The position numbers and the translations under genes were made by a program. A DNA stretch of 64,000 bases from contig CAKSGV010000006.1 in the NCBI GenBank assembly GCA_934454845.1, positions 12,898 through 76,897 of the forward strand, read 5' to 3'. This document shows, in pieces, positions 3,680 to 59,151 of this stretch (the stretch's first letter is position 1; each line of letters opens with the position of its first letter). The notes under the pieces are model-generated. The model ran no database searches. It was not told the DNA's origin and saw only the letters and a program-made list of their open reading frames with translations. The stretch comes from an uncultured Eubacteriales bacterium (GTDB taxonomy: Bacteria; Bacillota; Clostridia; Oscillospirales; Acutalibacteraceae).

Positions 3680-3693
3680 CTATTCCTCCCGAA

Positions 3694-3978
3694 TTATTCA
3701 ACTATTGCAAGAATATCCGCTATATGAAGAACGGAATACTCTTCATCATCAACTTTTATATCAGTACCGGCATATTTGGCAGCGATAACCTTATCTCCTA
3801 CCTTAACTGTCATTTTAACCTCTTTGCCGTCAACCGCACCGCCGGGGCCTACAGCTACAACTTCAGCTATCTGAGGCTTTTCCTTTGAAGCGGATGTGAG
3901 AACGATACCGCTTTTAGTGGTTTCTTCGGTTTTAGCGGCTTTTACAACGACATTATCCGCAAGTGGTTTAATAATCAT
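3694..3978 (-). CDS. groS: Co-chaperonin GroES
   Basis: MIIKPLADNVVVKAAKTEETTKSGIVL...VKVGDKVIAAKYAGTDIKVDDEEYSVL. The ATG at 3978 is 7 nt after GGAGG; the longer ORF to 4020 has no SD. Confidence 0.94.
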   Translation of the reverse strand: MIIKPLADNVVVKAAKTEETTKSGIVLTSASKEKPQIAEVVAVGPGGAVDGKEVKMTVKVGDKVIAAKYAGTDIKVDDEEYSVLHIADILAIVE

Positions 3979-4057
3979 TTTTATTCCTCCGTAAAATATG
4001 ATCGGTGCTTTTTTCATCACCGTACATTATGATATTATAGCACTATTTTCTAAAAAG

Positions 4058-4999
4058 TCAAGTAAAGTCAAACACATTTAATTTTTTATTAACATTTTCG
4101 ACTTCCACACCTTCAGGCAAAATAAAATTTACCGCTTTAGGGGCTATTTCAAATTTCATTTTTGAAATTTCCGATATCTCACCGTCAAGATTTACAGGTA
4201 CCGGTTTTTCCGAAGAAAATTCCATAGTCCTGCAGGTTTTTAAAACGCAGTAATCAAATTCCGCGTGTTTGCCTTTTTTATATTTGTTTAAAAAATTCGG
4301 TATTTTTAATTTAGATATTTTTTCAACAAGCGTAAAATCAAGCTGACCGTCAAAAGGATCGGCTTTGGGAGCTGCCATATATCCTCCGCCGTAAAAAGGA
4401 GCGTTAGCCGCAACGGCAAAAAGACAGTTTGAGAAAAACGATTTTTTACCGTCTAACGAAATCTTTGCCGAAATTCCTATCTTACCGAGAAATGTTTTAA
4501 CAATGGCAAGATTGTATGCAAGTGGACCCGTTACCAAAGGCAGGCGTTTATAGATCTGCATATCTCTCGCCACGACCGCATCCATTCCTATTGAGCATCC
4601 GTTAAGGCAATAAAAATCGTTTGCCTTTATCGCGTCTATTTTAACGCTTTTACCTTTTATTTGCGCGGCCAAATCCGAAAAGGGAGCCGAGGACTTGAAA
4701 AATTTCAGAAAATCGTTAGCCGAGCCACAGGGAATAACGCCGATCGATGCATTTTCAAAACCAATTATCCCGTTTAACACTTCAAATACAGTTCCCTCGC
4801 CGCCGCAGGCAAAGATTTTTATCTCTCCGCCTTTTTTTGCCTCGTTTTTTGCTATATTTACGGCTTCGCCCTTAAATTCGGTAAAATAAACCGCACTGTT
4901 TTCTTCCCTTTTCGGAAAGCAGGCTTTTATTTTATTATAGATATCTTTTTGAATTTTGCCTTTTCCTGCCGCGGGATTGATAATAAATATGTATCTCAT
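4058..4999 (-). CDS. Diacylglycerol/lipid kinase family protein (YegS/DagK-like)
   Basis: 313 aa with a DAGK catalytic-domain signature: IINPAAGKGK...FACGGEGTVFEVLNGI...IPCGSANDF. Confidence 0.85.
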   Translation of the reverse strand: MRYIFIINPAAGKGKIQKDIYNKIKACFPKREENSAVYFTEFKGEAVNIAKNEAKKGGEIKIFACGGEGTVFEVLNGIIGFENASIGVIPCGSANDFLKFFKSSAPFSDLAAQIKGKSVKIDAIKANDFYCLNGCSIGMDAVVARDMQIYKRLPLVTGPLAYNLAIVKTFLGKIGISAKISLDGKKSFFSNCLFAVAANAPFYGGGYMAAPKADPFDGQLDFTLVEKISKLKIPNFLNKYKKGKHAEFDYCVLKTCRTMEFSSEKPVPVNLDGEISEISKMKFEIAPKAVNFILPEGVEVENVNKKLNVFDFT

Positions 5000-29405: not shown

Positions 29406-30203
29406 ATGAATACAAAAAATTTTTTTCAGATATCCGAGGCGGCTCAATCCTGCGGAGTTTCGCGCAGCACTATTATGCGAATGGAAGAAAAAGGATTGCT
29501 AAAACCTATCTACATTTCTCCCGAAAACGGAAGAAGATATTATGATAACCATAATATCGCACGGATATTGCAGATCGAAAAATTTAAAATAATGGGACTT
29601 AGCACCGCAGATATAATAGAATATTTTAATCGCGGAGGCGAGGCGGCTGATCTGCTTAAAATTCTTGAAAACAAACTTCACGATCTTACGCGCAGTGTGG
29701 AAGAATTGCGGATAAGAGCCGAAAAAAGCGGCAGCATATCAGTTCATATAATGAATTTACCCGAAGTGATATGTTGTATGAGAAAATGTGAGGGACACAC
29801 GATAAAAGAAAAATATGACGCTATGTATGATTTTTACAGCGAGTGTATTCGAAAAGGGTTTAAATTATCGAGTGAACCTATCTTTTCTATCTCAGAGCGC
29901 TGCGATTATCTTGACGGATATATCGGCGATACTCCATATCCTTTTTGGGTGGGCATTCCGATGATAAAAGAAAAAGCTCCTAAAGAAGCGGTAACCTTAC
30001 CTGCCTGCAAAGCACTTTCCGTGCTATATTGCGGCGGATACGAAGAAATCGACAATGCCTGGCTCACTTTAGGCAAAGAAGTTAAATCGAGAGGGTTAAA
30101 AGTAAAAGATTTTCCGCGTGTTTTAGGTATAGTCGCGCCATACACCGGCCGTGAGATAGAAACGCGCCGATACTGCCACCGCCTTGTCTTGCCGATAGAA
30201 TAA
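29406..30203 (+). CDS. MerR family transcriptional regulator with a GyrI-like effector-binding domain (BmrR-type)
   Basis: N-terminal FQISEAAQSCGVSRSTIMRMEEKGLLKP HTH, a coiled-coil linker, and a ~150 aa C-terminal GyrI-like region. Confidence 0.87.
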   Translation: MNTKNFFQISEAAQSCGVSRSTIMRMEEKGLLKPIYISPENGRRYYDNHNIARILQIEKFKIMGLSTADIIEYFNRGGEAADLLKILENKLHDLTRSVEELRIRAEKSGSISVHIMNLPEVICCMRKCEGHTIKEKYDAMYDFYSECIRKGFKLSSEPIFSISERCDYLDGYIGDTPYPFWVGIPMIKEKAPKEAVTLPACKALSVLYCGGYEEIDNAWLTLGKEVKSRGLKVKDFPRVLGIVAPYTGREIETRRYCHRLVLPIE

Positions 30204-47028: not shown

Positions 47029-47054
47029 TCAAAGCACCACCGTTGAAAATATTT

Positions 47055-47081
47055 AAAGCAGTGTATAAAACACACTGCTTT
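47055..47081. terminator. Hairpin after the glutamate synthase operon
   Basis: AAAGCAGTGT-ataaaa-CACACTGCTTT. Confidence 0.55.
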
Positions 47082-47114
47082 AATTTTACCTTCTTTATAT
47101 TCCGTTGTCAACTG

Positions 47115-47831
47115 TCAATTGGCGACATAAAGCTGTTTATAAGGGTTTTTAGTGTCGGGTGTTATAACATAAAAATCCTCCGAGATAACTTCTTCAAAAT
47201 CGTACCCGAAAATCGAACAAAATCTTTCTAAAACAGGAAGAATATCATCCATATCTTTCTTATCTGCTTTTTTAACGGTCGTCTGCTTAGGAAACTCAAT
47301 ATTATCGATATTTCCTCTGATAATCATTTTTCCGCCGTGCATTCCCGTGCAGGGGAAATTGCCGACAGTCGGCTTGCTGCCATTTGTCAGACCCAATACT
47401 ATAATCAGTCCTCCCGCCTGGTACTCTCCGAGAAAGCTGCCTGCTTTTCCGCCTATCATTATAACAGGCTGTTTTTCCTCGTAAGCTTTCATATGTATTC
47501 CCGCACGGTAGCCGGCATTACCTTTTATAAAAATTTCTCCTCCGCGCATAGCGTAACCTACAGCGTCGCCCGCATTGCCGTAAATAATTATCTTGCCGTC
47601 GTTCATAGTATCTCCCACAGCGTCCTGTGCGTTTCCGAAAACCTTTATTTTGCCGCCTGTTAAATAAGCTCCCAAAGCATTCCCGGGAATTCCTTTGAGC
47701 GTTACGTTTCCGTCTTTCATTCCCGCGCATAAAAATCTTTGCCCCAAGCAGTTATCTATTTCTATATCCTTTTCATTTCTGATAGCTTCATTAAGCTCCG
47801 AAAAATTCTTATTTTCTGCACTTATCTTCAT
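47115..47831 (-). CDS. Glutamate synthase GXGXG-repeat (beta-helix) domain protein (GltB domain 3 equivalent)
   Basis: Repeated G-x-x-G-x-x-x-G turns: GIPGNALGAYLTGGKIKVFGNAQDAVGDTMNDGKIIIYGNAGDAVGYAMRGGEIFIKGNAGYRAG. Confidence 0.85.
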   Translation of the reverse strand: MKISAENKNFSELNEAIRNEKDIEIDNCLGQRFLCAGMKDGNVTLKGIPGNALGAYLTGGKIKVFGNAQDAVGDTMNDGKIIIYGNAGDAVGYAMRGGEIFIKGNAGYRAGIHMKAYEEKQPVIMIGGKAGSFLGEYQAGGLIIVLGLTNGSKPTVGNFPCTGMHGGKMIIRGNIDNIEFPKQTTVKKADKKDMDDILPVLERFCSIFGYDFEEVISEDFYVITPDTKNPYKQLYVAN

Positions 47832-47845
47832 TTTTTCACCTGCTT

Positions 47846-49351
47846 TTATTCTCCTGCGTGAGATATTCCGAGGATATCAAGTTCCTTTTGAGTCATATTT
47901 ATTCCTCTTAACATCAATCGGTTTCCTCTTAAGGCTTCTATAGAATTTATTCCCATTCCGCCGAGCATTTCCTTTATTTCATACTGCCACGCCGAAATCA
48001 CATTAATAAGCTTTTTGCAGCTCTTTTCGGAATCGAGCCTTTTAACAAGCTCGGGATTTTGAGTTGCAATTCCCCAGTTGCATTTTCCCGACTGGCAGTT
48101 TCTGCAAAGGTGGCAGCCCATAGCTATGAGCGCGGCAGTGGCAATATAGCAGGCGTCAGCTCCGAGAGCGATAGCTTTTATAACATCCGCCGAGCTTCTT
48201 ATACTTCCTCCCGCAATCAGCGAAACATTATCCCTTATTCCCTCGTCGCGCAGTCTTGTATCAACTGCGGCGATAGCAAGTTCTATAGGAATTCCCACAT
48301 TATCGCGAATTCTTGTAGGAGCGGCGCCCGTTCCTCCTCTTATGCCGTCTATCGCTATGATATCCGCTCCGCTTCTTGCAATTCCGCTCGCAATGGCTGC
48401 AATATTATGCACGGCCGCAACCTTTACTATAATAGGCTTTTTATATTCCGTGGCTTCTTTAAGCGAAAAGACAAGCTGTCTTAAATCCTCGATAGAATAA
48501 ATATCGTGGTGAGGAGCGGGAGAAATGGCATCGGACCCTTCGGGAATCATTCTTGTTTTTGAAACGTCACTTGTTATTTTCGATCCCGGCAAGTGGCCGC
48601 CTATTCCGGGCTTTGCCCCCTGACCCATTTTTATTTCTATTGCGGCTCCGGCATTAAGATAGGTTTCATAAACTCCGAATCTGCCCGATGCCACCTGCAC
48701 GATAGTATTATCCTTATATTTATAAAAATCCTTATGAAGTCCGCCCTCGCCGGTGTTATAAAGAATTCCTAAGGCCTCGGAGGCTTTAGCTAAACTTTCG
48801 TGCGCATTATAGCTAATTGAGCCGTAACTCATAGCGGAAAAAAGAACCGGCAGCGAAAGCTCAAGCTGCGGGGGCATTTTCTTTATTATTTTCCCATTTT
48901 CATCTCTTTTGATCTCGCTTGATTTTTTGCCTAAAAAAACTTTTGTTTCCATAGGCTCTCTAAGCGGATCGATAGGAGGATTTGTAACCTGAGAAGCATT
49001 TATAAGAATTCTGTCAAAGTATACCGGCAGTTCATTCGGGTTTCCCATTGATGATAATAATACTCCGCCGCTTTGAGCTTGTTTATATATCTCTTTTACC
49101 GTACTGCTGTTCCAATTCGCGTTTTCTTTGAAAGCACAGTCGGTCTTGACTATTTTAAGCGCGTGTTCAGGACACATACATACGCACCTTTGGCAGTCCA
49201 CACACTTTGTTTCATCGCTTTTAAGAGCTTTTGTTTTTTCATCGAAAAAATGAACTCCCATTGAGCACTGCTTAACGCAAATTCCGCAGAGAGTGCACCT
49301 TTCTTTATTTCTTACTATCTCAAAATCCGGAAAAATATAATCTTCAGCCAT
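47846..49351 (-). CDS. Glutamate synthase FMN/Fe-S catalytic domain protein with N-terminal 2x[4Fe-4S] ferredoxin
   Basis: CTLCGICVKQC and CVDCQRCVCMCP clusters, then a GltB domain-2 pattern (MSYGSIS...GEGG...KMGQGAKPGIGGHLPG...DGIRGGTGAAP). Confidence 0.88.
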   Translation of the reverse strand: MAEDYIFPDFEIVRNKERCTLCGICVKQCSMGVHFFDEKTKALKSDETKCVDCQRCVCMCPEHALKIVKTDCAFKENANWNSSTVKEIYKQAQSGGVLLSSMGNPNELPVYFDRILINASQVTNPPIDPLREPMETKVFLGKKSSEIKRDENGKIIKKMPPQLELSLPVLFSAMSYGSISYNAHESLAKASEALGILYNTGEGGLHKDFYKYKDNTIVQVASGRFGVYETYLNAGAAIEIKMGQGAKPGIGGHLPGSKITSDVSKTRMIPEGSDAISPAPHHDIYSIEDLRQLVFSLKEATEYKKPIIVKVAAVHNIAAIASGIARSGADIIAIDGIRGGTGAAPTRIRDNVGIPIELAIAAVDTRLRDEGIRDNVSLIAGGSIRSSADVIKAIALGADACYIATAALIAMGCHLCRNCQSGKCNWGIATQNPELVKRLDSEKSCKKLINVISAWQYEIKEMLGGMGINSIEALRGNRLMLRGINMTQKELDILGISHAGE

Positions 49352-50442
49352 CAGAATTTTCCCTCCCTGACCTTTATTATAACAGGCTCTCCGCCCGACG
49401 GTGCATAAATATTTTCAGCCTCCGGCTCCATAACCCTTATCGCCGCCTCTTCGCTTGCGACAAATACCTTATCTCCTTTTTCGGCTGTAACCATTGATCT
49501 CAATTTAAGCCTGTCGTTTAGAGCCATTATTCCGCCCGAAAAGCCCAAAATAATTGAAAAAGGCCCGGTGATAAGAAGACTCGGAAACATTTTTCTTAAA
49601 TAAAGATAGATTTCTTTTTTCTCATTATCCATTTTCTCAATAGTGCTCCAAAACGGAGCCGCAATAACAGCGGCGGTTTCTTTTAAAGTAAGTCCTTTTT
49701 TTCTTAAAAGGTAGTCGGCTATATAGGCAATTACTTCGGTATCGGTCTGAAGAGTGCATTTATAGCCGAACATTTCTATAAACCTGCGGTTGGCGTCATA
49801 AGAAGAAATTTCGCCGTTATGTACCACAGAATAATCAAGAAGTGAAAATGGGTGAGCTCCTCCCCACCAGCCGGGAGTGTTTGTGGGATATCTTCCGTGA
49901 GCTGTCCAGGAATAGCCCTCGTATTCGTCAAGCCTGTAAAATCTTCCGACATCTTCCGGAAATCCCACTGCCTTGAAAGCTCCCATATTTTTACCGCTGG
50001 AGAAAACATAAGCTCCGTTATATTTTATGTTAATATCCATAACTGTTCTTGCAACATATTCTTTTTCATCAAGCTGTAATCTTGATAAAATACTTGACAA
50101 AGGAGCGACGAAATATCGCCAAATAAGCGGAACGTCGGTTATTTCGGGAATTTTCTTTATCGGAATATTTTCCGCTTTCACTATTTCAAATCTATCCTTT
50201 AAAAGCCTTTCGCAGTTTACCCTGTCCTCATTATCATTATAAAAAATATGCAGGGCATAAAGCTCTTTATATTCGGGATAAATTCCATAAGCGGCAAAAC
50301 CGCCGCCGAGTCCGTTCGACCTATCGTGCATAGGGATCATACTTTTAATTATAGTTTCTCCGCTGAATCTTTCTCCCTCTTTAGAAATAACAGCGGAAAT
50401 AGCGCACCCTGAAGGAATACGGACTTCTCCCTCCAATTTCAT
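49351..50442 (-). CDS. Class II (Ntn) glutamine amidotransferase domain protein (GltB domain 1 equivalent)
   Basis: 363 aa with SGCAISAV near the N-terminus, HDRSNGLGGGFA and HGRYPTNTPGWWGGAHPF...VHNGEISS. The stop/start overlaps the next gene. Confidence 0.84.
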   Translation of the reverse strand: MKLEGEVRIPSGCAISAVISKEGERFSGETIIKSMIPMHDRSNGLGGGFAAYGIYPEYKELYALHIFYNDNEDRVNCERLLKDRFEIVKAENIPIKKIPEITDVPLIWRYFVAPLSSILSRLQLDEKEYVARTVMDINIKYNGAYVFSSGKNMGAFKAVGFPEDVGRFYRLDEYEGYSWTAHGRYPTNTPGWWGGAHPFSLLDYSVVHNGEISSYDANRRFIEMFGYKCTLQTDTEVIAYIADYLLRKKGLTLKETAAVIAAPFWSTIEKMDNEKKEIYLYLRKMFPSLLITGPFSIILGFSGGIMALNDRLKLRSMVTAEKGDKVFVASEEAAIRVMEPEAENIYAPSGGEPVIIKVREGKF

Positions 50443-50459
50443 AAGGCAAAACTCCTCTC

Positions 50460-50518
50460 AAAATAAAAAAGCGCTCATATTAATAAGGGTGAACCTTATA
50501 ATATGAACGCCTTTGTTC
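50460..50518 (-). promoter_or_regulatory. Leader attenuator module, copy 3: AAAGGC-hexaloop hairpin mutually exclusive with a long intrinsic terminator
   Basis: The minus strand reads GAAC-AAAGGC-GTTC (50518-50505). The GGCGTTCATATTATAAGG...CCTTATTAATATGAGCGC terminator stem (50511-50471) reuses the loop 3' half and the 3' arm, and is followed by TTTTTTATTTT. Confidence 0.6.
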
Positions 50519-50536
50519 AACATTTGATTTTTCCAC

Positions 50537-50565
50537 ATTATAGCACCGAAAAATCTTTTTGTCAA
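50537..50565 (-). promoter_or_regulatory. Consensus sigma-A promoter of the split glutamate synthase operon (TTGACA-17-TATAAT)
   Basis: The complement of 50565-50560 is TTGACA, the spacer is 17 nt, and the complement of 50542-50537 is TATAAT. Confidence 0.65.
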
Positions 50566-50662
50566 TAAAAGTTAAAAAATTTATCGGATTTTGTCGTATT
50601 GCTTTATTTTTTTAAGAAAAAATATCAGAAAAGATAAAAAAATTAATTTTTTTTAAAAACCA

Positions 50663-50691
50663 TTGACAAGTGATTTGCAAAGCGTTATAAT
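50663..50691 (+). promoter_or_regulatory. Consensus sigma-A promoter of the glnA-amt operon (TTGACA-17-TATAAT)
   Basis: TTGACA 50663-50668, a 17 nt spacer, TATAAT 50686-50691. Confidence 0.65.
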
Positions 50692-50702
50692 ATCACGCAT
50701 AG

Positions 50703-50757
50703 AAGACAAAGGCGTCTTAAGAGGAAAAATCTCTTAACGGCGTCTTTTATTTATTTT
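50703..50757 (+). promoter_or_regulatory. Leader attenuator module, copy 1
   Basis: AAGAC-AAAGGC-GTCTT hairpin (50703-50718). The terminator GGCGTC-TTAAGAG-gaaaaat-CTCTTAA-c-GGCGTC (50711-50744) is followed by TTTTATTTATTTT, and its 5' arm overlaps the hairpin. Confidence 0.6.
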
Positions 50758-50769
50758 ATATGTAATTTT

Positions 50770-50825
50770 GGGGCAACGGCGTCTCCTTTCCAATCAAAAA
50801 GGAAAGGAATCGCCGCCCTTTTTTA
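50770..50825 (+). promoter_or_regulatory. Leader attenuator module, copy 2
   Basis: GGGGC-AACGGC-GTCTC hairpin (50770-50785, with two G-U pairs). The terminator CGGCGTCTCCTTTCC...GGAAAGGAATCGCCG(CCC) (50777-50818) is followed by TTTTTTATTT. Confidence 0.55.
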
Positions 50826-50846
50826 TTTATAAAGGAGTTGTCAGTT

Positions 50847-52943
50847 ATGAAAACAGTACCGGAATACTTTGGAAGTCTTGTATTTGACGATCGTGTGATG
50901 AAATCCAAATTACCCAAGGATATTTACGATTCGCTCAAAAAAACTATAGATGAGGGCGCAAGCCTTAAAAATGATGTAGCAAACGCAGTTGCGGAAGCTA
51001 TGAAGGACTGGGCGGTCGAACACGGAGCCACACATTTCACGCATTGGTTTCAGCCGCTTACCGGAATTACCGCCGAAAAACACGACAGCTTTATAACCCC
51101 CTCCCCCGACGGCGGAGTTATAATGGAGTTTTCCGGAAAAGAGCTTATAAAGGGCGAGCCTGACGCTTCCTCTTTCCCCTCCGGCGGACTTCGCGCCACA
51201 TTTGAGGCAAGAGGCTATACCGCCTGGGATCCTACTTCTTATGCCTTTATTAAAGATAAAACGCTTTGCATTCCTACCGCGTTTTGTTCTTACGGCGGTG
51301 AGGCGCTCGATAAAAAGACTCCCCTATTGCGCTCTATGCAGGCATTAAATAAGCAGGCGCTAAGAATTTTAAAACTTTTCGGTAATGAAGATGTTAAATG
51401 CGTAAGAACATCTGTAGGTCCTGAGCAGGAATATTTTCTTATAACTAAAGAAATGTACGAAAAGAGAAAAGATCTGCAGTTTTGTTCCAGAACGCTTTTC
51501 GGAGCAAAGCCTCCTAAAGGACAAGAACTCGACGATCATTACTTCGGAGTGATCAAACCCAGAGTAGCGGCGTTTATGGCCGAACTTAACGAAGAGCTGT
51601 GGAAACTCGGAATTCTTGCTAAAACCGAGCATAACGAGGTTGCTCCCGCTCAGCACGAGCTTGCTCCTATATATGCGACAACTAACATCGCGACCGATCA
51701 CAACCAACTTACAATGGAAATTATGCAAAAGGTTGCGGCAAAGCACGGACTTGTTTGCCTGCTGCACGAAAAACCTTTTGCGGGAGTGAACGGCTCGGGC
51801 AAGCACAACAACTGGTCTATGGCGACCGACACGGGCGTAAATCTTCTTACTCCCGGCGAAACTCCTTATGAAAACGCACAGTTTTTACTTTTCCTTTGCG
51901 CCGTTATTAAAGCAGTAGACGATTATCAGGATCTTTTAAGACTTGCTGTTGCCACTGCAGGAAACGATCACAGACTCGGTGCAAACGAGGCTCCTCCGGC
52001 AGTTGTTTCTATGTTTTTGGGCGACGAGCTTTCAGCAGTGCTTGATGCTATTGAAAACGACAATCCCTATGCAGGTACGGAAAAGACCGTGATGAAGTTA
52101 GGCGTTCATACTCTTCCGAAATTTACAAGAGATAATACCGACCGCAACCGCACCTCGCCTTTCGCGTTTACGGGAAATAAATTCGAATTCCGTATGCTCG
52201 GCTCTTCAAACAGCATTGCCTGCACAAATATTATGCTCAATGCCGCGGTGGCAGAGTCATTAAAAATTTACGCAGACAGATTAGAGGGCGCAGAAGATTT
52301 TGAAACCGCTCTTCACGATATGATTAAGAAAACTATTAAAGATCATAAGCGCATTATATTTAACGGCAACGGTTACGACGATTCATGGATAAAGGAAGCA
52401 ACCGAAAAGCGCGGACTTTTAAATCTCCGCACCACGCCTGATGCGATTCCTAAAATCCTTGATAAAAAGAATGTGGAAATGCTTACTTCTCACAAGATAT
52501 TCACTGAAGCGGAAATAAAATCAAGGTATGAGATAACCCTTGAGAATTACTGCAAAACGGTAAATATCGAGGCTCTTACAATGATAGATATGGCGAAAAA
52601 GGAAATTTTGCCTGCAATAGAAAGCTATATTAAAGAGCTTTCTAAAACAATAAGTCTTAAACAGACGGCAGTTCCCGGTTCTGCTTCTTCATACGAAAAA
52701 GACACGGTCAAGAAATTATCCGTGCTGACAGATGAAATTTATTTTGCCGAATCGGATCTCGAAAGCGCTGTTTTGAAGCTTAAAGATATCGAAGATGTGG
52801 GAGAAGAATCAAAATTCATCCGCGATGATATTCTTGATAAAATGGCAAAACTCAGAGTTCCTTGCGATGAAGCGGAAACTCTCACCGCATCAAAATACTG
52901 GCCCTTCCCGACTTACGGAGAATTGCTTTTCGGAGTAAAATAA
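50847..52943 (+). CDS. glnA: Glutamine synthetase type III (GlnN-type)
   Basis: About 698 aa with GSIII-typical motifs (FHWFQPLTG-like [37 protein letters not shown]). The ATG at 50847 is 9 nt after AAAGGAG; the track's TTG at 50838 is less likely. Confidence 0.95.
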
Positions 52944-52956
52944 GGAGGAATTAAAA

Positions 52957-54669
52957 ATGACATACAGTGCGGTAAATACCATTTGGGTGCTGATTGGTGC
53001 CGCTTTGGTATTCTTTATGCAAGCAGGTTTTTCAATGTGCGAGGCAGGATTTACAAGAGCCAAAAACACGGGAAATATCCTTATGAAAAACCTTATGGAC
53101 TTCTGTATCGGAACGCCTTGCTTTTGGCTTGTAGGCTTCGGCATAATGTTCGGAGCCGGCACAGGACTTTTCGGTTGGATAGATCCTTTAATTACTAAAG
53201 ATTACAGTCACATTTTACCGGCAGGTGTTCCGCTTTGGGCATATGCAATATTCCAAACGGTTTTTTGTGCAACTTCCGCAACAATAGTTTCGGGAGCTAT
53301 GGCGGAAAGAACTAAATTCAGTGCATACTGCATTTATTCCGCCGCTATTTCGCTTTTTATCTATCCTGTTTCGGGACACTGGATTTGGGGCGGCGGCTGG
53401 CTTTCTAAACTCGGATTTCACGATTTTGCCGGTTCAACGGCAGTACATATGGTCGGCGGTATCTGTGCCCTTATAGGAGCTGCTATATTAGGCCCGAGAA
53501 TCGGAAAATATGATAAAAAAGGAAAACCGAAAGCAATTCTCGGTCACAACTTAACTTTTGCGGCTTTGGGAGTTTTCATCCTTTGGTTCTGCTGGTTCGG
53601 ATTTAACGGTGCTTCCACAGTCGGAATGGATACCGATGAGCTTATGATAAGCGCAGGAAGAATATTTTTCAACACAAACCTCGCAGCGGCTGTGGCTTGT
53701 TGTGTAACACTTATTTTCACTTGGATAAGATATAAAAAGCCTGATGTTTCTATGACTTATAACGCAGCTCTTGCAGGTCTTGTGGGCATTACAGCCGGAT
53801 GCGATGCCGTGGATCCTATAGGCGCCGCGATTATGGGAATAGTTTTCGGAATCGTAATTGTGCTGTCCGTAGAGTTCTTTGATAAAGTAGCAAAGATCGA
53901 CGACCCTGTCGGAGCTATATCCGTTCACTGCGTCTGCGGTGCTTTGGGAACGATACTTACAGGATTTTTTGCAACCGGAGTTTCAACCGAAAAAGGCGTA
54001 TTCTATGGCGGAGGTTTCCATTTCCTCGGAATTCAAACACTCGGAGTTTTATCTGTAGCGGCTTATGTTGCCGTAATAATCACTGTTGTGTTCCTTATTA
54101 TAAAACATACTATAGGATTAAGAGCTTCGGCAGAGGATGAAATTGCAGGTCTTGATGTTTCGGAGCACGGTTTGCTTACAGCTTATGCCGGATTTTCAAT
54201 GCTTCCGGATACTGTTTCGGAGGATGACGAAAATGTTACAGTCGTTTCCGGAGATGTTCCTCCGGCAGAAGCGATACCCGTTAAAAAAGTTCCATCATTC
54301 GATGAAACTTCGCCTAAATTCACAAAAGTTGAAATAATATGCAAGGAATCAAAATTTGAAGCGCTTAAAAAAGCACTTATGGATCTCGGAATCACCGGAA
54401 TGACAATGTCGCATGTTTTAGGTTGCGGAGCCCAAAAAGGTAAACCCGAATATTACAGAGGCATAGAAGTGGAAGCAAGTCTTCTTCCGAAAATCCAGCT
54501 TGATATTGTGGTCAGCAAAGTGCCTGTCAGAAGCGTTATAGAAACCGCTAAAAAGGTTCTTTATACCGGTCACATAGGCGACGGCAAAATATTTGTTTAC
54601 GATGTTGAAAATGTCGTAAAAGTAAGAACCGGCGAAGAGGGTTATGACGCTTTGCAGGATGTGGAATAA
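52957..54669 (+). CDS. amtB: Ammonium transporter (Amt) fused to a C-terminal PII (GlnB/GlnK) signal-transduction domain
   Basis: The N-terminal ~400 aa are Amt (FFMQAGFSMCEAGF, DFAGSTAVHMVGG, VHCVCGALG). After an acidic linker, the last ~115 aa read KVEIICKESKFEALKKALMDLGITGMTMSHVLGCGAQKGKPEYYRG...GDGKIFVYDVENVVKVRTGE, a full PII fold with T-loop. Confidence 0.92.
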   Translation: MTYSAVNTIWVLIGAALVFFMQAGFSMCEAGFTRAKNTGNILMKNLMDFCIGTPCFWLVGFGIMFGAGTGLFGWIDPLITKDYSHILPAGVPLWAYAIFQTVFCATSATIVSGAMAERTKFSAYCIYSAAISLFIYPVSGHWIWGGGWLSKLGFHDFAGSTAVHMVGGICALIGAAILGPRIGKYDKKGKPKAILGHNLTFAALGVFILWFCWFGFNGASTVGMDTDELMISAGRIFFNTNLAAAVACCVTLIFTWIRYKKPDVSMTYNAALAGLVGITAGCDAVDPIGAAIMGIVFGIVIVLSVEFFDKVAKIDDPVGAISVHCVCGALGTILTGFFATGVSTEKGVFYGGGFHFLGIQTLGVLSVAAYVAVIITVVFLIIKHTIGLRASAEDEIAGLDVSEHGLLTAYAGFSMLPDTVSEDDENVTVVSGDVPPAEAIPVKKVPSFDETSPKFTKVEIICKESKFEALKKALMDLGITGMTMSHVLGCGAQKGKPEYYRGIEVEASLLPKIQLDIVVSKVPVRSVIETAKKVLYTGHIGDGKIFVYDVENVVKVRTGEEGYDALQDVE

Positions 54670-54679
54670 ATAGTTTAAA

Positions 54680-54905
54680 AGCGATTGAGCCGGGACAGGT
54701 TTTAAAGGAAAACTCTTTACAGCGAGTATGGGATGGTGAGAGCCATGCAAGATAAATTCCTTTAAAATAACCCCCGGCGAGCTTTGATCCGAAATGAATA
54801 TTCAAAGTAGGTGATACGGGTTTCGCCCGTTACAGCGGAAATAATGAGAACAAAGATTGGTGGCACAGCGAGTTACAGCACTTGCCCAATTGAATGCTGA
54901 TAATT
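54680..54905 (+). promoter_or_regulatory. T-box leader, Asn specifier (AAU/AAC)
   Basis: Stem I base AGCGATTGAGCCGGG...CCCGGC, distal GGTGAGAG, specifier loop AAAAUAACC (54764-54772), AGTA-box region and a Stem III ACGGG-tttcg-CCCGT. The T-box sequence is AGATTGGTGGCACAGCG (54854-54870). It forms an antiterminator AGAUUGG/CCAAUU with the 7-nt bulge UGGCACA and helix GCGAG/CUUGC. Confidence 0.75.
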
Positions 54906-54923: not shown

Positions 54924-56501
54924 ATGTGTTCAATTATGGGTTATTGTGATTCGGGTGCCTCCTTTTCTGCTTTTAAAAAAGGTTTTGATCTCACTGTTTC
55001 AAGAGGCCCCGACGATACAAGAATTGCAGATACAGGCTTTGGACTTTTAGGCTTTCACAGGCTCGCTATTATGGGACTTACGAGCGAGGGAATGCAGCCT
55101 TTTGAATTAAACGGAAGTTATGTGGTTTGCAACGGTGAAATTTACGGATTTGAAAAATTAAAAGCCGATCTTGCGGACTCTTATACCTTTAAAAGCGATT
55201 CCGACTGCGAGATAATTCTGCCGCTTTATGAGAAATATGACACCGAAATGTTTAAAATGCTTGACGCGGAATTTGCTATGATAATTTTTGACGGCAAGAA
55301 GAAAAAATATATTGCTGCCCGCGATCCGATAGGAATACGGCCGCTTTATTACGGAAAGGATTCTGAAGGTTCTTACATTTTTGCAAGCGAGCCTAAAAAC
55401 CTTATAGGTCTATGCAAAAAAATAATGCCTTTCCCGCCCGGCTGCTATTTTGAAGACGGAAAATTCACTTCCTACTGTGATATAACAGAGGTTAAAAAAG
55501 TAATAAAAGACGATATTGATACAGTCTGCAAAAACATAAAGGAAAAGCTAATTTCAGGAGTTGAAAAACGGCTCGTTTCAGACGCAAAGGTAGGATTTTT
55601 ATTATCCGGCGGACTTGATTCTTCGCTTGTTTGCTCTATCGCCGCAAAAAAATCCAAAGAAAAAATCAAAACCTTTGCAGTCGGAATGAGCGGCGACGCT
55701 ATCGATCTTAAATATGCAAAAGAAGTAGCCGATTATATCGGCAGCGATCACACCGAGGTTATAATGACTAAAGAAGAAGTCATTAAGTCTATAGACGAGG
55801 TTATAAAAATTCTCGGCACCTTTGATATCACCACCATAAGAGCAAGTATGGGAATGTATCTAATATGCAAATGGATTCACAAAAACACCGATATCAGAGT
55901 CTTACTTACAGGCGAAATTTCCGATGAGCTTTTCGGATATAAATATACTGATTTCGCTCCTAATGCAGAGGAATTCCAGAAAGAGTCCGTAAAGCGGGTA
56001 AAAGAGCTTCATATGTATGATGTTTTAAGAGCGGACCGCTGTATTTCGGTAAACTCGCTTGAAGCGAGAGTCCCTTTCGGAGATCTCGATTTTGTTAAGT
56101 ATGTTATGGCAATTAACCCCGAAATGAAAATGAACAAATACAACAAAGGCAAATATCTTTTAAGGCATGCCTTTGAGGGCGATTATCTGCCCCACGATAT
56201 TCTATACCGTGAAAAAGCGGCGTTTTCCGACGCGGTCGGTCATTCAATGGTAGACTATATGAAAGAATACGCAAACAGCTATTATTCCGATAAGGAATTT
56301 GAAGAAAAAAGAAAAAAATACACGCACGCCGCACCGTTTACAAAAGAATCGCTCTTATACAGAGAGATATTTGAAAAATATTATCCCGGTCAGGCTGAAA
56401 TGATAAAAGATTTCTGGATGCCGAACAAGTCATGGGAAGGCTGCGATGTCGACGATCCTTCGGCAAGGGTTCTTTCTAACTACGGTGACAGCGGAAAATA
56501 A
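54924..56501 (+). CDS. asnB: Asparagine synthase (glutamine-hydrolysing)
   Basis: Starts MCSIMGY (the N-terminal Cys nucleophile), 7 nt after GGAGGA. It has the PP-loop GFLLSGGLDSS. The track start at 54894 adds 10 unlikely residues. Confidence 0.93.
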   Translation: MCSIMGYCDSGASFSAFKKGFDLTVSRGPDDTRIADTGFGLLGFHRLAIMGLTSEGMQPFELNGSYVVCNGEIYGFEKLKADLADSYTFKSDSDCEIILPLYEKYDTEMFKMLDAEFAMIIFDGKKKKYIAARDPIGIRPLYYGKDSEGSYIFASEPKNLIGLCKKIMPFPPGCYFEDGKFTSYCDITEVKKVIKDDIDTVCKNIKEKLISGVEKRLVSDAKVGFLLSGGLDSSLVCSIAAKKSKEKIKTFAVGMSGDAIDLKYAKEVADYIGSDHTEVIMTKEEVIKSIDEVIKILGTFDITTIRASMGMYLICKWIHKNTDIRVLLTGEISDELFGYKYTDFAPNAEEFQKESVKRVKELHMYDVLRADRCISVNSLEARVPFGDLDFVKYVMAINPEMKMNKYNKGKYLLRHAFEGDYLPHDILYREKAAFSDAVGHSMVDYMKEYANSYYSDKEFEEKRKKYTHAAPFTKESLLYREIFEKYYPGQAEMIKDFWMPNKSWEGCDVDDPSARVLSNYGDSGK

Positions 56502-57822: not shown

Positions 57823-59151
57823 ATGAAATTTTCCGAAAGTATTCTTTCGCCTAAAAAGCGCTTCCACGGCGGAGCCGAGATAGAGCATTTTAAGAATACA
57901 GAAGATTTTGAAACCGTTTTTATGCCTGCTAAAGGAACTTTGTGTATTCCTATGATTCAGCATATCGGCACACCCTGCGAACCGACAGTTAAAAAAGGAG
58001 ATAAGGTGTTTATCGGAACGCTTATAGGAAAAAGCGTTTCAAAAATCAGCGCTCCTATTTATTCAAGCTGTTCGGGAACTGTCAGTGATGTTAAAGAAAC
58101 CGATATTTCGGGAAGACAGGTTTTAAGTGTCTTTATTGAATCAGACGAAAAATCGGAATACGATCCCTCTCTTAAGCCGTTCCCCGTAAAAAGCCCCGAA
58201 GATCTTAAAAACGCGGCTTTTAACTGCGGTCTTGTGGGCTTAGGCGGCGCAGGATTTCCCACTTATATAAAGCTTGATTCAAATTCTGCGGATCTTGACA
58301 CTCTTATTATCAACGCCGCGGAATGCGAGCCTTATATCACTTCGGACTACAGAGAATCGCTTGAAAACTTCAACGATATTATCGAGGGCGTATATTTAAT
58401 CAAAGATATCCTCAAATTGCAGAAAGTTATTATCTGCGTAGAAAAAAATAAGCCAAAGGCTATAGATAAGCTTATGCTTGTTGCCGCAGATCACCGCGAT
58501 GCAGACGATTCGGTTAAAGTTATGCAGCTGCCGGATACTTATCCGCAGGGCGCGGAAAAGCTGCTCGTATATTCTGCAACGGGAAGAAAAATTTCACAGG
58601 GTATGCTCCCCTCGGATGTGGGATGCCTTGTTATGAATATCACGACCGTCGGAACATTATACAGATTTATAACTTCGGGGAAACCGCTCACCGCAAAAAG
58701 AATAACTCTTGACGGAACGGCGATAACCGAGCCTAAAAATATAATGGTTCCTATAGGCACTTCTGTAAAAGCGGTGCTTGATTTTTCCGATAATCCCGAT
58801 CCTGACGGTGAAAGCATTATAATAGGCGGTCCTATGATGGGAACTTCGGCTGCAAATCTCAACGCGGTCATAGAAAAAAGAACTAACGCCGTTCTTGTTA
58901 TGAAGCCGAAAGCTTCAAAACTAATGACTAATTGCATTCACTGCCAAAGGTGCGCGGGAGTATGTCCTATGAGCCTTTATCCGGCACAGGTTGAGGCTGC
59001 TTTAAGATCGGATCATAAAGAAATGCTCGATCAGCTTTATGTCGGTTACTGTATAGAATGCGGATGCTGCTCATATATCTGCCCCGCCGCAATACCTCTC
59101 ACACAATCGATGAGAACGGCAAAAGCAGAATTAAGGAGGAATAAAAAATGA
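57823..59151 (+). CDS. rnfC: Rnf electron transport complex subunit C
   Basis: GLVGLGGAGFPT nucleotide-binding motif and two C-terminal 4Fe-4S motifs (CIHCQRCAGVCP, CIECGCCSYICP). Confidence 0.95.
   Translation: MKFSESILSPKKRFHGGAEIEHFKNTEDFETVFMPAKGTLCIPMIQHIGTPCEPTVKKGDKVFIGTLIGKSVSKISAPIYSSCSGTVSDVKETDISGRQVLSVFIESDEKSEYDPSLKPFPVKSPEDLKNAAFNCGLVGLGGAGFPTYIKLDSNSADLDTLIINAAECEPYITSDYRESLENFNDIIEGVYLIKDILKLQKVIICVEKNKPKAIDKLMLVAADHRDADDSVKVMQLPDTYPQGAEKLLVYSATGRKISQGMLPSDVGCLVMNITTVGTLYRFITSGKPLTAKRITLDGTAITEPKNIMVPIGTSVKAVLDFSDNPDPDGESIIIGGPMMGTSAANLNAVIEKRTNAVLVMKPKASKLMTNCIHCQRCAGVCPMSLYPAQVEAALRSDHKEMLDQLYVGYCIECGCCSYICPAAIPLTQSMRTAKAELRRNKK

Follow-up and report, generated by a model that had tools for sequence, protein, structure and literature searches.

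Candidate single-hairpin attenuators of the ANTAR type in the shared control region of divergent GSIII and glutamate synthase operons of an uncultured clostridial bacterium

Three hairpin/terminator elements lie in the 404-bp spacer (50442 to 50847) that separates two divergent nitrogen-assimilation operons of an uncultured Eubacteriales bacterium, one encoding a type III glutamine synthetase (GSIII) followed by an Amt-PII fusion and the other an archaeal-type split glutamate synthase (GOGAT). The DNA that we analysed, called the window below, is a stretch of 64,000 nucleotides (64 kb; assembly GCA_934454845.1, contig CAKSGV010000006.1, positions 12,898 to 76,897 of the forward strand), and its coordinates are counted from its first letter. 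The reading that we consider likely, and favour with some confidence, is that all three act as ANTAR-type attenuators of transcription that depend on a protein. In silico support for this reading comes from the promoters, the mutually exclusive folds, the conservation and covariation of the hairpin, its restriction to nitrogen-gene leaders, the ANTAR genes adjacent to related loci and the identity with a published binding site.

The proposed switch would operate as follows. RNA polymerase would start at a strong sigma-70 promoter, and the first ~25 nt of the transcript would fold into a short hairpin whose A-A-N-G-G-C loop is closed by a C-G pair. If the binder is absent, a much more stable terminator stem beside a U tract would take up the loop's 3' half together with the 3' arm (GGCGUC), and transcription would stop before the gene, the default state being OFF. 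Under nitrogen need, an ANTAR protein would bind and lock the emerging hexaloop hairpin; the locked hairpin would withhold the G+C-rich base of the terminator and allow read-through into GSIII-Amt/PII or GOGAT. We infer here both the binding and the direction of the nitrogen signal. Two such checkpoints would act in series before GSIII and one before GOGAT, and the series arrangement should lower leakage and sharpen the response.

Three hairpin/terminator units in one spacer

An original prediction, made from the letters alone, had described two perfect divergent TTGACA-17-TATAAT promoters and, in the transcripts, three hexaloop hairpins with the loops AAAGGC, AACGGC and AAAGGC, the first two placed as switches in series before glnA (the GSIII gene) and the third before GOGAT. 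It had also proposed folding the three leaders, searching them with the Rfam ANTAR-target and glutamine-riboswitch models and scanning relatives for copies before nitrogen genes, and it had named a lack of hairpin covariation in orthologous leaders among the outcomes that would speak against it. Both promoters match the consensus at 12/12 positions and the three hairpins lie where they were predicted (Table 1). The loops all carry A at position 1 and G at position 4 (A1 and G4) on a 5-bp stem, which is the loop signature of ANTAR substrates, and there is one hairpin per unit.

The minimum free energy (MFE) folds of the leaders computed with RNAfold are the terminators, with shuffle z-scores of -4.2 to -6.7 for the three, versus small hexaloop hairpins that form only in isolation, at -4.0 to -4.5 kcal/mol. 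The whole glnA leader has an MFE of -52 kcal/mol (z -6.9), and terminator T2 is part of that fold. In all three units the loop's 3' half and the 3' arm serve both the hexaloop hairpin and the terminator, and H2 shares its 5' arm as well; a hexaloop hairpin that overlaps the 5' arm of an intrinsic terminator is what is seen in ANTAR substrates. Forcing H1 to form leaves a short apical stem of 6 bp that stops 9-10 nt short of the U tract; forcing the GOGAT hairpin leaves a short apical stem that stops 6 nt (GAGCGC) short of it. The predicted mutual exclusion and antitermination anatomy are therefore borne out by the shared bases, with the residual stem detached from the U tract in the first glnA unit and in the GOGAT unit. 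Since the terminator folds are far more stable than the hairpins, termination would be the default and read-through would need the hairpin to be held during transcription. RNAfold recovers 3/3 of the terminators and a simple terminator scanner 0/3; the misses are probably explained by the limits of the scanner, which counts no more than 20 pairs and only loops of 3-8.

The string AAMGGCGTY occurs six times on both strands of the window, four of them inside the spacer of ~400 bp. The fourth copy in the spacer, AACGGCGTCTT at 50736-50746 (+), is the 3' arm of T1. We considered it as an extra binding site and rejected it, since a 5' partner is lacking and the near self-complementarity of AAGGCG(Y)CTT (G.U allowed) makes the pairing arm of a terminator look like the motif. 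In this family the 3' arms of terminators often mimic the binding motif, as is also seen in four related loci (L005, L018, L035 and L045). An isolated AACGGCGTT is present at 58893 on the - strand, antisense to the rnfC open reading frame (ORF) at 57823-59151, as AGAAC-GGCGTTA-GTTCT followed by TTTTT; this hairpin is without the hexaloop geometry of the family and is probably due to chance.

Table 1. Features of the control region and its flanking operons, and further modules in related loci. Positions in related loci (L numbers) are 0-based loop starts on the module's own strand.
Feature	Source	Position	Strand	Remarks
GSIII-Amt/PII promoter	window	50663..50691	+	TTGACA 50663-50668, 17 nt, TATAAT 50686-50691; 12/12 sigma-70 consensus
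Hexaloop hairpin H1	window	50703..50718	+	aagac-AAAGGC-gtctt; begins ~12 nt past -10 box; -4.3 kcal/mol folded alone
Terminator T1	window	stem-loop 50708-50747, U tract 50745-50757	+	MFE -18.0 kcal/mol, z -4.2; 5' arm is H1 loop and 3' arm
Hexaloop hairpin H2	window	50770..50785	+	ggggc-AACGGC-gtctc; second in series before GSIII
Terminator T2	window	stem-loop 50770-50819, U tract 50819-50828	+	MFE about -28 kcal/mol, z -5.2; uses H2 5' arm GGGGC and GGCG
Type III glutamine synthetase (GSIII)	window	50847..52943	+	Pfam GSIII_N, Gln-synt_C, Gln-synt_C-ter; proposed regulated gene
Amt-PII fusion	window	52957-54669	+	3' of GSIII; Pfam Ammonium_transp and P-II
Split GOGAT operon promoter	window	50537..50565	-	TTGACA 50565-50560, 17 nt, TATAAT 50542-50537; TG before -10; 12/12 sigma-70 consensus
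GOGAT-leader hexaloop hairpin	window	50504..50519	-	(u)gaac-AAAGGC-guuc(a); -4.0 kcal/mol folded alone
GOGAT-leader terminator	window	stem-loop 50514-50467, U tract 50470-50460	-	MFE -23.9 kcal/mol, z -6.7; 5' arm is hairpin loop and 3' arm
Archaeal-type split glutamate synthase operon (GOGAT)	window	47115..50442	-	Pfam; proposed regulated operon
GOGAT GATase_2 subunit	window	49351-50442	-	Pfam
GOGAT Glu_synthase+Fer4 subunit	window	47846-49351	-	Pfam
GOGAT GXGXG subunit	window	47115-47831	-	Pfam
Module before GDH	L006	3027	+	
Module before GuaA	L021	11696	+	
Module before CarA	L023	10076	+	
Module before PyrG	L029	3952	+	
Module before PyrG	L036	12754	+	
Module before PurA	L083	8368	-	
Module before AsnA	L057	4870	+	
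Module before ORF of similar size to AsnA	L062	4835	+	
Module before ORF of similar size to AsnA	L065	4836	+	

Conservation and covariation among relatives

For comparison, 80 GSIII loci were collected by a protein-guided scan; they belong to Clostridia (Oscillospiraceae, Ruminococcaceae, Lachnospiraceae and others) at 65-81% identity. A strict module was defined by a closing C-G pair, the loop A-[A/T]-N-G-[G/A]-N, a stem of at least 4 bp and a U run downstream; because the searches demanded A1 and G4, the fact that neither varies in the alignment or the module list is by construction. A rule-based scan of both strands of 0.99 Mb (the related loci and the window) returned 109 strict modules, and 80 of the 109 stand before recognisable nitrogen genes. 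The module precedes GSIII in 37 related loci and the window, and the gene of the GOGAT GATase subunit in 21 related loci and the window, always as a single copy; the GOGAT-leader hairpin of the 21 related loci has the form 'tgaRc-AAAGGC-gttca'. It is also found before Amt-PII (5 loci), GS-I (4 loci) and AsnB, and further modules precede AsnA, GDH, GuaA, CarA, PyrG and PurA genes (Table 1). The three AsnA-type ORFs behind modules are ~335-350 aa long, and one is confirmed as AsnA by Pfam. Judged from these leaders, the module regulon appears to reach far beyond GS, GOGAT and Amt and to include other ammonia- or glutamine-consuming enzymes.

The wiring seen in the window, two switches before GSIII and one before GOGAT, recurs in the relatives. 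Seven GSIII leaders including that of the window contain two modules, spaced by 65-94 nt in six (the window, L008, L021, L039, L053 and L080) and by 179 nt in one (L005). Each module of a relative that was folded gave a strong terminator with a U tract, the base of which is built from the loop and 3' arm of the hairpin. The apex loops of these terminators vary in size and sequence, and outside the hairpin and the terminator base there is no sequence conservation among the leaders.

Covariation was assessed on 50 sites picked only by CAANGGCG and by leader position. The stem positions pair in 76.9% of cells (G.U counted) against 63.6% in shuffles, and slid registers pair in 39-53% of cells. Double-sided changes number 65 versus 29.5 in shuffles, a value reached by 0/500 shuffles; the flanks thus covary as a stem, contrary to one of the outcomes that the original prediction had named against itself. 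The pair adjoining the closing C-G is G.U in 30/50 sites, which indicates a constraint on RNA rather than on a DNA palindrome. When a covariance model is made only from the 47 sites that lie outside the window, the three window hairpins rank 1-3 in the window: H1 scores 21.2 bits (E 0.002), the GOGAT hairpin 18.8 bits (E 0.01) and H2 14.4 bits (E 0.2). The score of H2 is weak on its own, and the next match in the window, at 12.6 bits, lies inside a coding region.

In the loops of the 80 nitrogen-gene modules, A occupies position 2 in 76, position 5 holds G or A and C predominates at position 6; the consensus of the family hairpin is aaaGGC-AAAGGC-GUCuuu. A promoter matching the consensus at 9/12 positions or better precedes 52/80 of them (35 match at least 11/12), and in 51 of the 52 the -10 box ends 5-17 nt (median 9.5) before the hairpin. 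The module is thus a promoter-proximal element.

Known systems and the candidate binder

The closest published counterpart is found in Geobacter sulfurreducens, where the ANTAR response regulator GnfR (Ueki & Lovley 2010) binds RNA containing CAGGCAAGGGCGCC; the GnfR site CAGGCAANGGCGCC overlaps terminators in the leaders of the nitrogen genes nifH, nifEN, nifX and glnK as well as amtB, and antitermination in these leaders depends on gnfR (PMC2995071). The closing C-G and the AANGGC loop of this site, CAGGC-AANGGC-GCC, are the same in the window copies AGAC-AAAGGC-GUCU, GGGC-AACGGC-GUCU and GAAC-AAAGGC-GUUC, in which the stem letters differ and the pairing is kept. The element also stands 5' of a terminator, and overlaps it, in a nitrogen-gene leader, as do the elements of the window and its relatives. 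The two systems differ in other respects. The Geobacter promoters depend on RpoN (sigma-54) whereas those of the window are sigma-70 consensus promoters; GnfR is phosphorylatable and has a kinase, GnfK, whereas in most of the regulators that adjoin the related loci the phospho-acceptor Asp is replaced by Asn; and against the nif, glnK and amtB targets of Geobacter the window has GSIII, split GOGAT and Amt-PII, two modules standing in series before GSIII.

The hexaloop A1 and G4 are critical for NasR and EutV (PMC3369931, PMC3369936). With the canonical targets of EutV, NasR and AmiR the window elements share the short stem, the A1/G4 hexaloop, a sequence-specific closing pair, the terminator overlap and the association with nitrogen metabolism. 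The canonical target is a pair of hairpins, whereas the window has one per terminator, with loop positions 2, 5 and 6 also constrained. ANTAR regulons for GS/ANTAR operons, GOGAT, P-II and Amt have been predicted in Firmicutes by Ramesh et al. 2012 (Table S2; PMC3369931). Antitermination by NitR induces the GS and GOGAT genes of Clostridium saccharobutylicum under nitrogen limitation, according to the account of Stutz et al. 2007 cited in PMC6316151. In that description, the glnA-nitR-gltAB cluster has an ANTAR gene beside a GS gene, and the order of GS-I followed by ANTAR recurs in 12 relatives of the window; the window itself has no nitR and no GS-I/ANTAR operon, its GS is of type III and its GOGAT is the split archaeal one. 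The GS and GOGAT leaders of the window contain terminators, and the comparison with the NitR system is one of description and gene order.

A gene for an ANTAR protein of ~200 aa lies within about 5.5 kb of GSIII in 17/80 related loci, and all ten of the proteins that were checked with Pfam match PF03861 (E 1e-12 to 1e-17). In 12 loci the ANTAR gene is directly 3' of a GS-I-sized ORF that is divergent from GSIII. The identity of GS-I was confirmed by Pfam in L039, L041, L018 and L024, and in 3/4 a CTP synthase (PyrG) gene follows the ANTAR gene. The GS-I/ANTAR operon leader carries the same module in L016, L039, L041, L053 and L083. Cultured relatives with a NitR-like protein include Clostridium methylpentosum DSM 5476 (L057), Ruminococcus flavefaciens (L029), Claveliimonas monacensis (L053) and Pseudoflavonifractor phocaeensis (L016). 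The original prediction had taken the single hairpin and the lack of a local ANTAR gene as signs of an undescribed leader class or of a non-ANTAR binder. This part of it is countered by the ANTAR genes near GSIII in 17/80 relatives, by the module in five GS-I/ANTAR operon leaders, by the match to the GnfR site, by the predicted Firmicutes ANTAR regulons and by the NitR precedent.

Among solved structures, the ANTAR proteins of the relatives, for example those encoded at 3680-4267 (-) in L039 and 3864-4463 (-) in L014, align best with Rv1626. Most of them have Asn at the position of the phospho-acceptor Asp (motif ...DLVIIN...) and the N-terminal acidic pair is missing, which makes them pseudo-receivers like AmiR. 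Control by phosphorylation in this lineage therefore looks unlikely from the protein sequences. The proteins may instead be controlled by a protein partner rather than a kinase, with the co-operonic GS-I paralogue as the candidate sensor; there are precedents for partner control in AmiC, which acts on AmiR, and in feedback-inhibited GS, which acts on GlnR and TnrA. The binder of the window modules would most likely be a NitR-like protein with a pseudo-receiver and an ANTAR domain, encoded elsewhere in the genome, and we infer its presence there.

Tentatively, and with clearly less assurance than for the ANTAR assignment, we would extend this to the proposal that clostridial NitR-type ANTAR proteins recognise one hairpin at the 5' end of the transcript (closing C-G, loop A-A-N-G-G-C), that their Asn pseudo-receiver is set by the co-operonic GS-I and not by phosphorylation, and that series attenuators tune the gain of GSIII. 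If this is true, recognition of a single hairpin would call for a change to the dual-hairpin rule for ANTAR substrates, and gut and rumen Clostridia would possess a nitrogen regulon that is both large and uncatalogued, with GSIII, split GOGAT, Amt-PII, AsnA/B, GDH, GuaA, CarA, PyrG and PurA as its members.

One hairpin per terminator, and other points that weigh against an ANTAR switch

Several observations weigh against the ANTAR assignment, among them the number of hairpins. The canonical ANTAR substrate is made of two hexaloop hairpins (P1 and P2), which are 5-12 nt apart in eut leaders, and EutV needs both as well as the spacing (PMC3369931); NasR binds a single hairpin weakly, at ~12 uM (PMC7496416). 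A second A..G.. hexaloop hairpin with a stem of at least 3 bp was found within 20 nt in 0/3 window units, so that the window elements depart from the dual-hairpin architecture. Across 56 modules, a second hairpin is present downstream in 6 and upstream in 2, versus 4.0 and 3.75 expected from shuffled flanks, and is thus no more frequent than chance, whereas the canonical substrate is a pair. A hidden P1/P2 was also sought by eye on all folded modules and was rejected, there being no enrichment; an AACGGA loop on the terminator apex of L014 is an isolated case. In most modules the hairpin starts within the first few transcribed bases, which leaves no room for an upstream P1. We also considered H1 and H2 as a long-range P1/P2 pair and rejected it as a general mechanism: the polymerase must pass T1 before H2 exists, and the module is single in GOGAT leaders and in 31/38 GSIII leaders. 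The elements may represent a single-hairpin ANTAR variant, in which extra loop contacts would compensate for the absent second site.

On the same side of the balance, enforcing the hexaloop hairpin costs 10-17 kcal/mol in the computed folds, and given such a gap the switch would have to work kinetically, during transcription. No ANTAR gene was found within the 64-kb window by two consensus queries, by a hidden Markov model built from the proteins of 16 relatives and by Pfam on 48 long ORFs, and no PRD/CAT, HutP, PyrR or TRAP protein is among these ORFs, whose only candidates are a generic S1 protein and MerR and TetR regulators; the original prediction was right on this absence. Just 5/12 of the adjacent GS-I/ANTAR operons have the module in their own leader, under the strict criteria.

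Finally, the Rfam search of the region returned no ANTAR, glutamine-riboswitch or other relevant family at the gathering score or at E up to 10, and no family at all at gathering. Weak matches to trpB, rli56, PyrR and the L20 leader were discarded as generic terminators that merely align. The only Rfam alignment that touches H1 (window 50665-50718) is that of RF03032, the narK RNA, at 15.2 bits against a gathering score of 43.2 and with the rest of the model unaligned, which is not membership; the 3' end of its consensus, CGAC-AAAGAC-GUCG, is the same type of hexaloop hairpin. The narK consensus starts with GGCaCAgcucUUGCU, which we take to resemble a sigma-54 -24/-12 promoter, and what the narK family represents may be a promoter combined with an ANTAR site, not a single structured RNA.

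Alternative explanations

The same hairpin/terminator switch could be worked by a factor other than an ANTAR protein, such as an RNA-binding protein not yet described, the P-II domain of the Amt fusion or a small RNA. An ANTAR gene is absent from the window, 63/80 related loci have none within about 6 kb, the window element lacks the second hairpin, and the conserved loop is tighter than the A1/G4 rule (A1, A2, G4, G/A at 5, C/U at 6 and a closing C-G), all of which would suit such a factor. We nonetheless regard it as unlikely: the hairpin is identical in type to the RNA bound by the ANTAR protein GnfR, ANTAR genes adjoin 17 related loci and five of their operons carry the module, and no other conserved regulator gene was noticed in the loci, in which no dedicated screen for one was made.

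It is a good deal less probable that the elements are unregulated, the 5' hairpins stabilising the mRNA against 5'-end-dependent RNases and the terminators acting as constitutive partial attenuators that damp strong promoters. Stem-loops at the 5' end can protect mRNAs, and the hairpins do lie at the extreme 5' end of the transcripts. However, a stabiliser needs a stem, not loop positions 1, 2 and 4 and a closing pair that are conserved from Clostridia to Geobacter, and the systematic overlap of the loop and 3' arm with the terminator base, together with the restriction to nitrogen-metabolism genes, indicates regulation.

We see still less merit in the idea that the inverted repeats are DNA operators, placed just past the start site, for a dimeric MerR factor like GlnR or TnrA, with no RNA structure involved. 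The repeats span about +3 to +25, a classic roadblock position, the window encodes a MerR-family protein of 265 aa at 29406-30203 (+), and weak matches to the GlnR/TnrA box TGTNAN7TNACA overlap both -35 boxes. This box was rejected as unspecific, since it has 39 one-mismatch matches in the window and those in the spacer are merely the TTGACA -35 boxes. GlnR and TnrA belong to the MerR family and are much shorter than the 265-aa regulator of the window. The stems also pair through G.U, at one position in more than half of the covariation sites, which would be meaningless in DNA, the conserved loop is asymmetric, and a DNA operator leaves no role for the terminator behind every copy.

The poorest candidate is a small-molecule riboswitch, for instance a glutamine-sensing one: the leaders do precede glutamine-metabolism genes and control a terminator, but what is conserved is a hairpin of 16-22 nt, in which a ligand pocket would not fit, nothing is conserved outside this hairpin and the terminator base, and no glnA/glutamine or other riboswitch family matches even at E = 10.

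Neighbouring features of the window

The GSIII gene has a ribosome-binding site, AAAGGAG, at 50831-50837 before its ATG at 50847, and three metagenome contigs encode an identical GSIII protein with the gene order unchanged; the exact contig is present in the ENA samples ERZ28637186, ERZ27295733 and ERZ27287342. Past the last GOGAT gene and ahead of the ABC-transporter gene that lies downstream, 47053-47083 is taken up by a perfect inverted repeat of 12-14 bp, TTAAAGCAGTGT...ACACTGCTTTAA, which has the look of a terminator in either direction. A - strand promoter match of 11/12 (47111-47083) adjoins the repeat at 47083. The end of the GOGAT operon is thus probably at this repeat, with the ABC/12TM genes under their own promoter.

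On the other side, a T-box leader is found at 54675-54892 (+), between Amt-PII (which ends at 54669) and an asparagine synthase gene with a called start at 54924. It is a full-length match to RF00230 at 62.4 bits (E 2e-13), under the Rfam gathering score of 93, and is for this reason missed by a default Rfam scan. The T-box sequence GGUGGCACAGCG is ~50 nt 5' of the asparagine synthase start codon and no obvious terminator was seen; the leader may act on translation. The asnB gene of the window would thus be controlled by tRNA charging, whereas the AsnB gene of the relative L022 instead has the hexaloop/terminator module.

Significance

Neither the mechanism nor the type of binder proposed here is new: antitermination of nitrogen genes by ANTAR proteins is on record for Geobacter, Klebsiella and Clostridium and has been widely predicted. 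What differs from the canonical model is the one-hairpin architecture alone. We thus view the window element as a variant of the GnfR/NitR-type nitrogen attenuator that has a single hairpin and is wired in series; this variant is widespread among gut and rumen Clostridia and uncatalogued in Rfam. It raises testable questions, namely how an ANTAR dimer would act on a single hairpin and what nitrogen signal NitR-type proteins respond to. Its practical value lies in a compact and searchable RNA signature, a promoter-proximal C-AANGGC-G hairpin overlapped by a terminator, which is absent from Rfam. In uncultured gut and rumen Clostridia the signature marks a broad regulon for nitrogen assimilation, and it would improve the annotation of ammonium-assimilation control in these bacteria.

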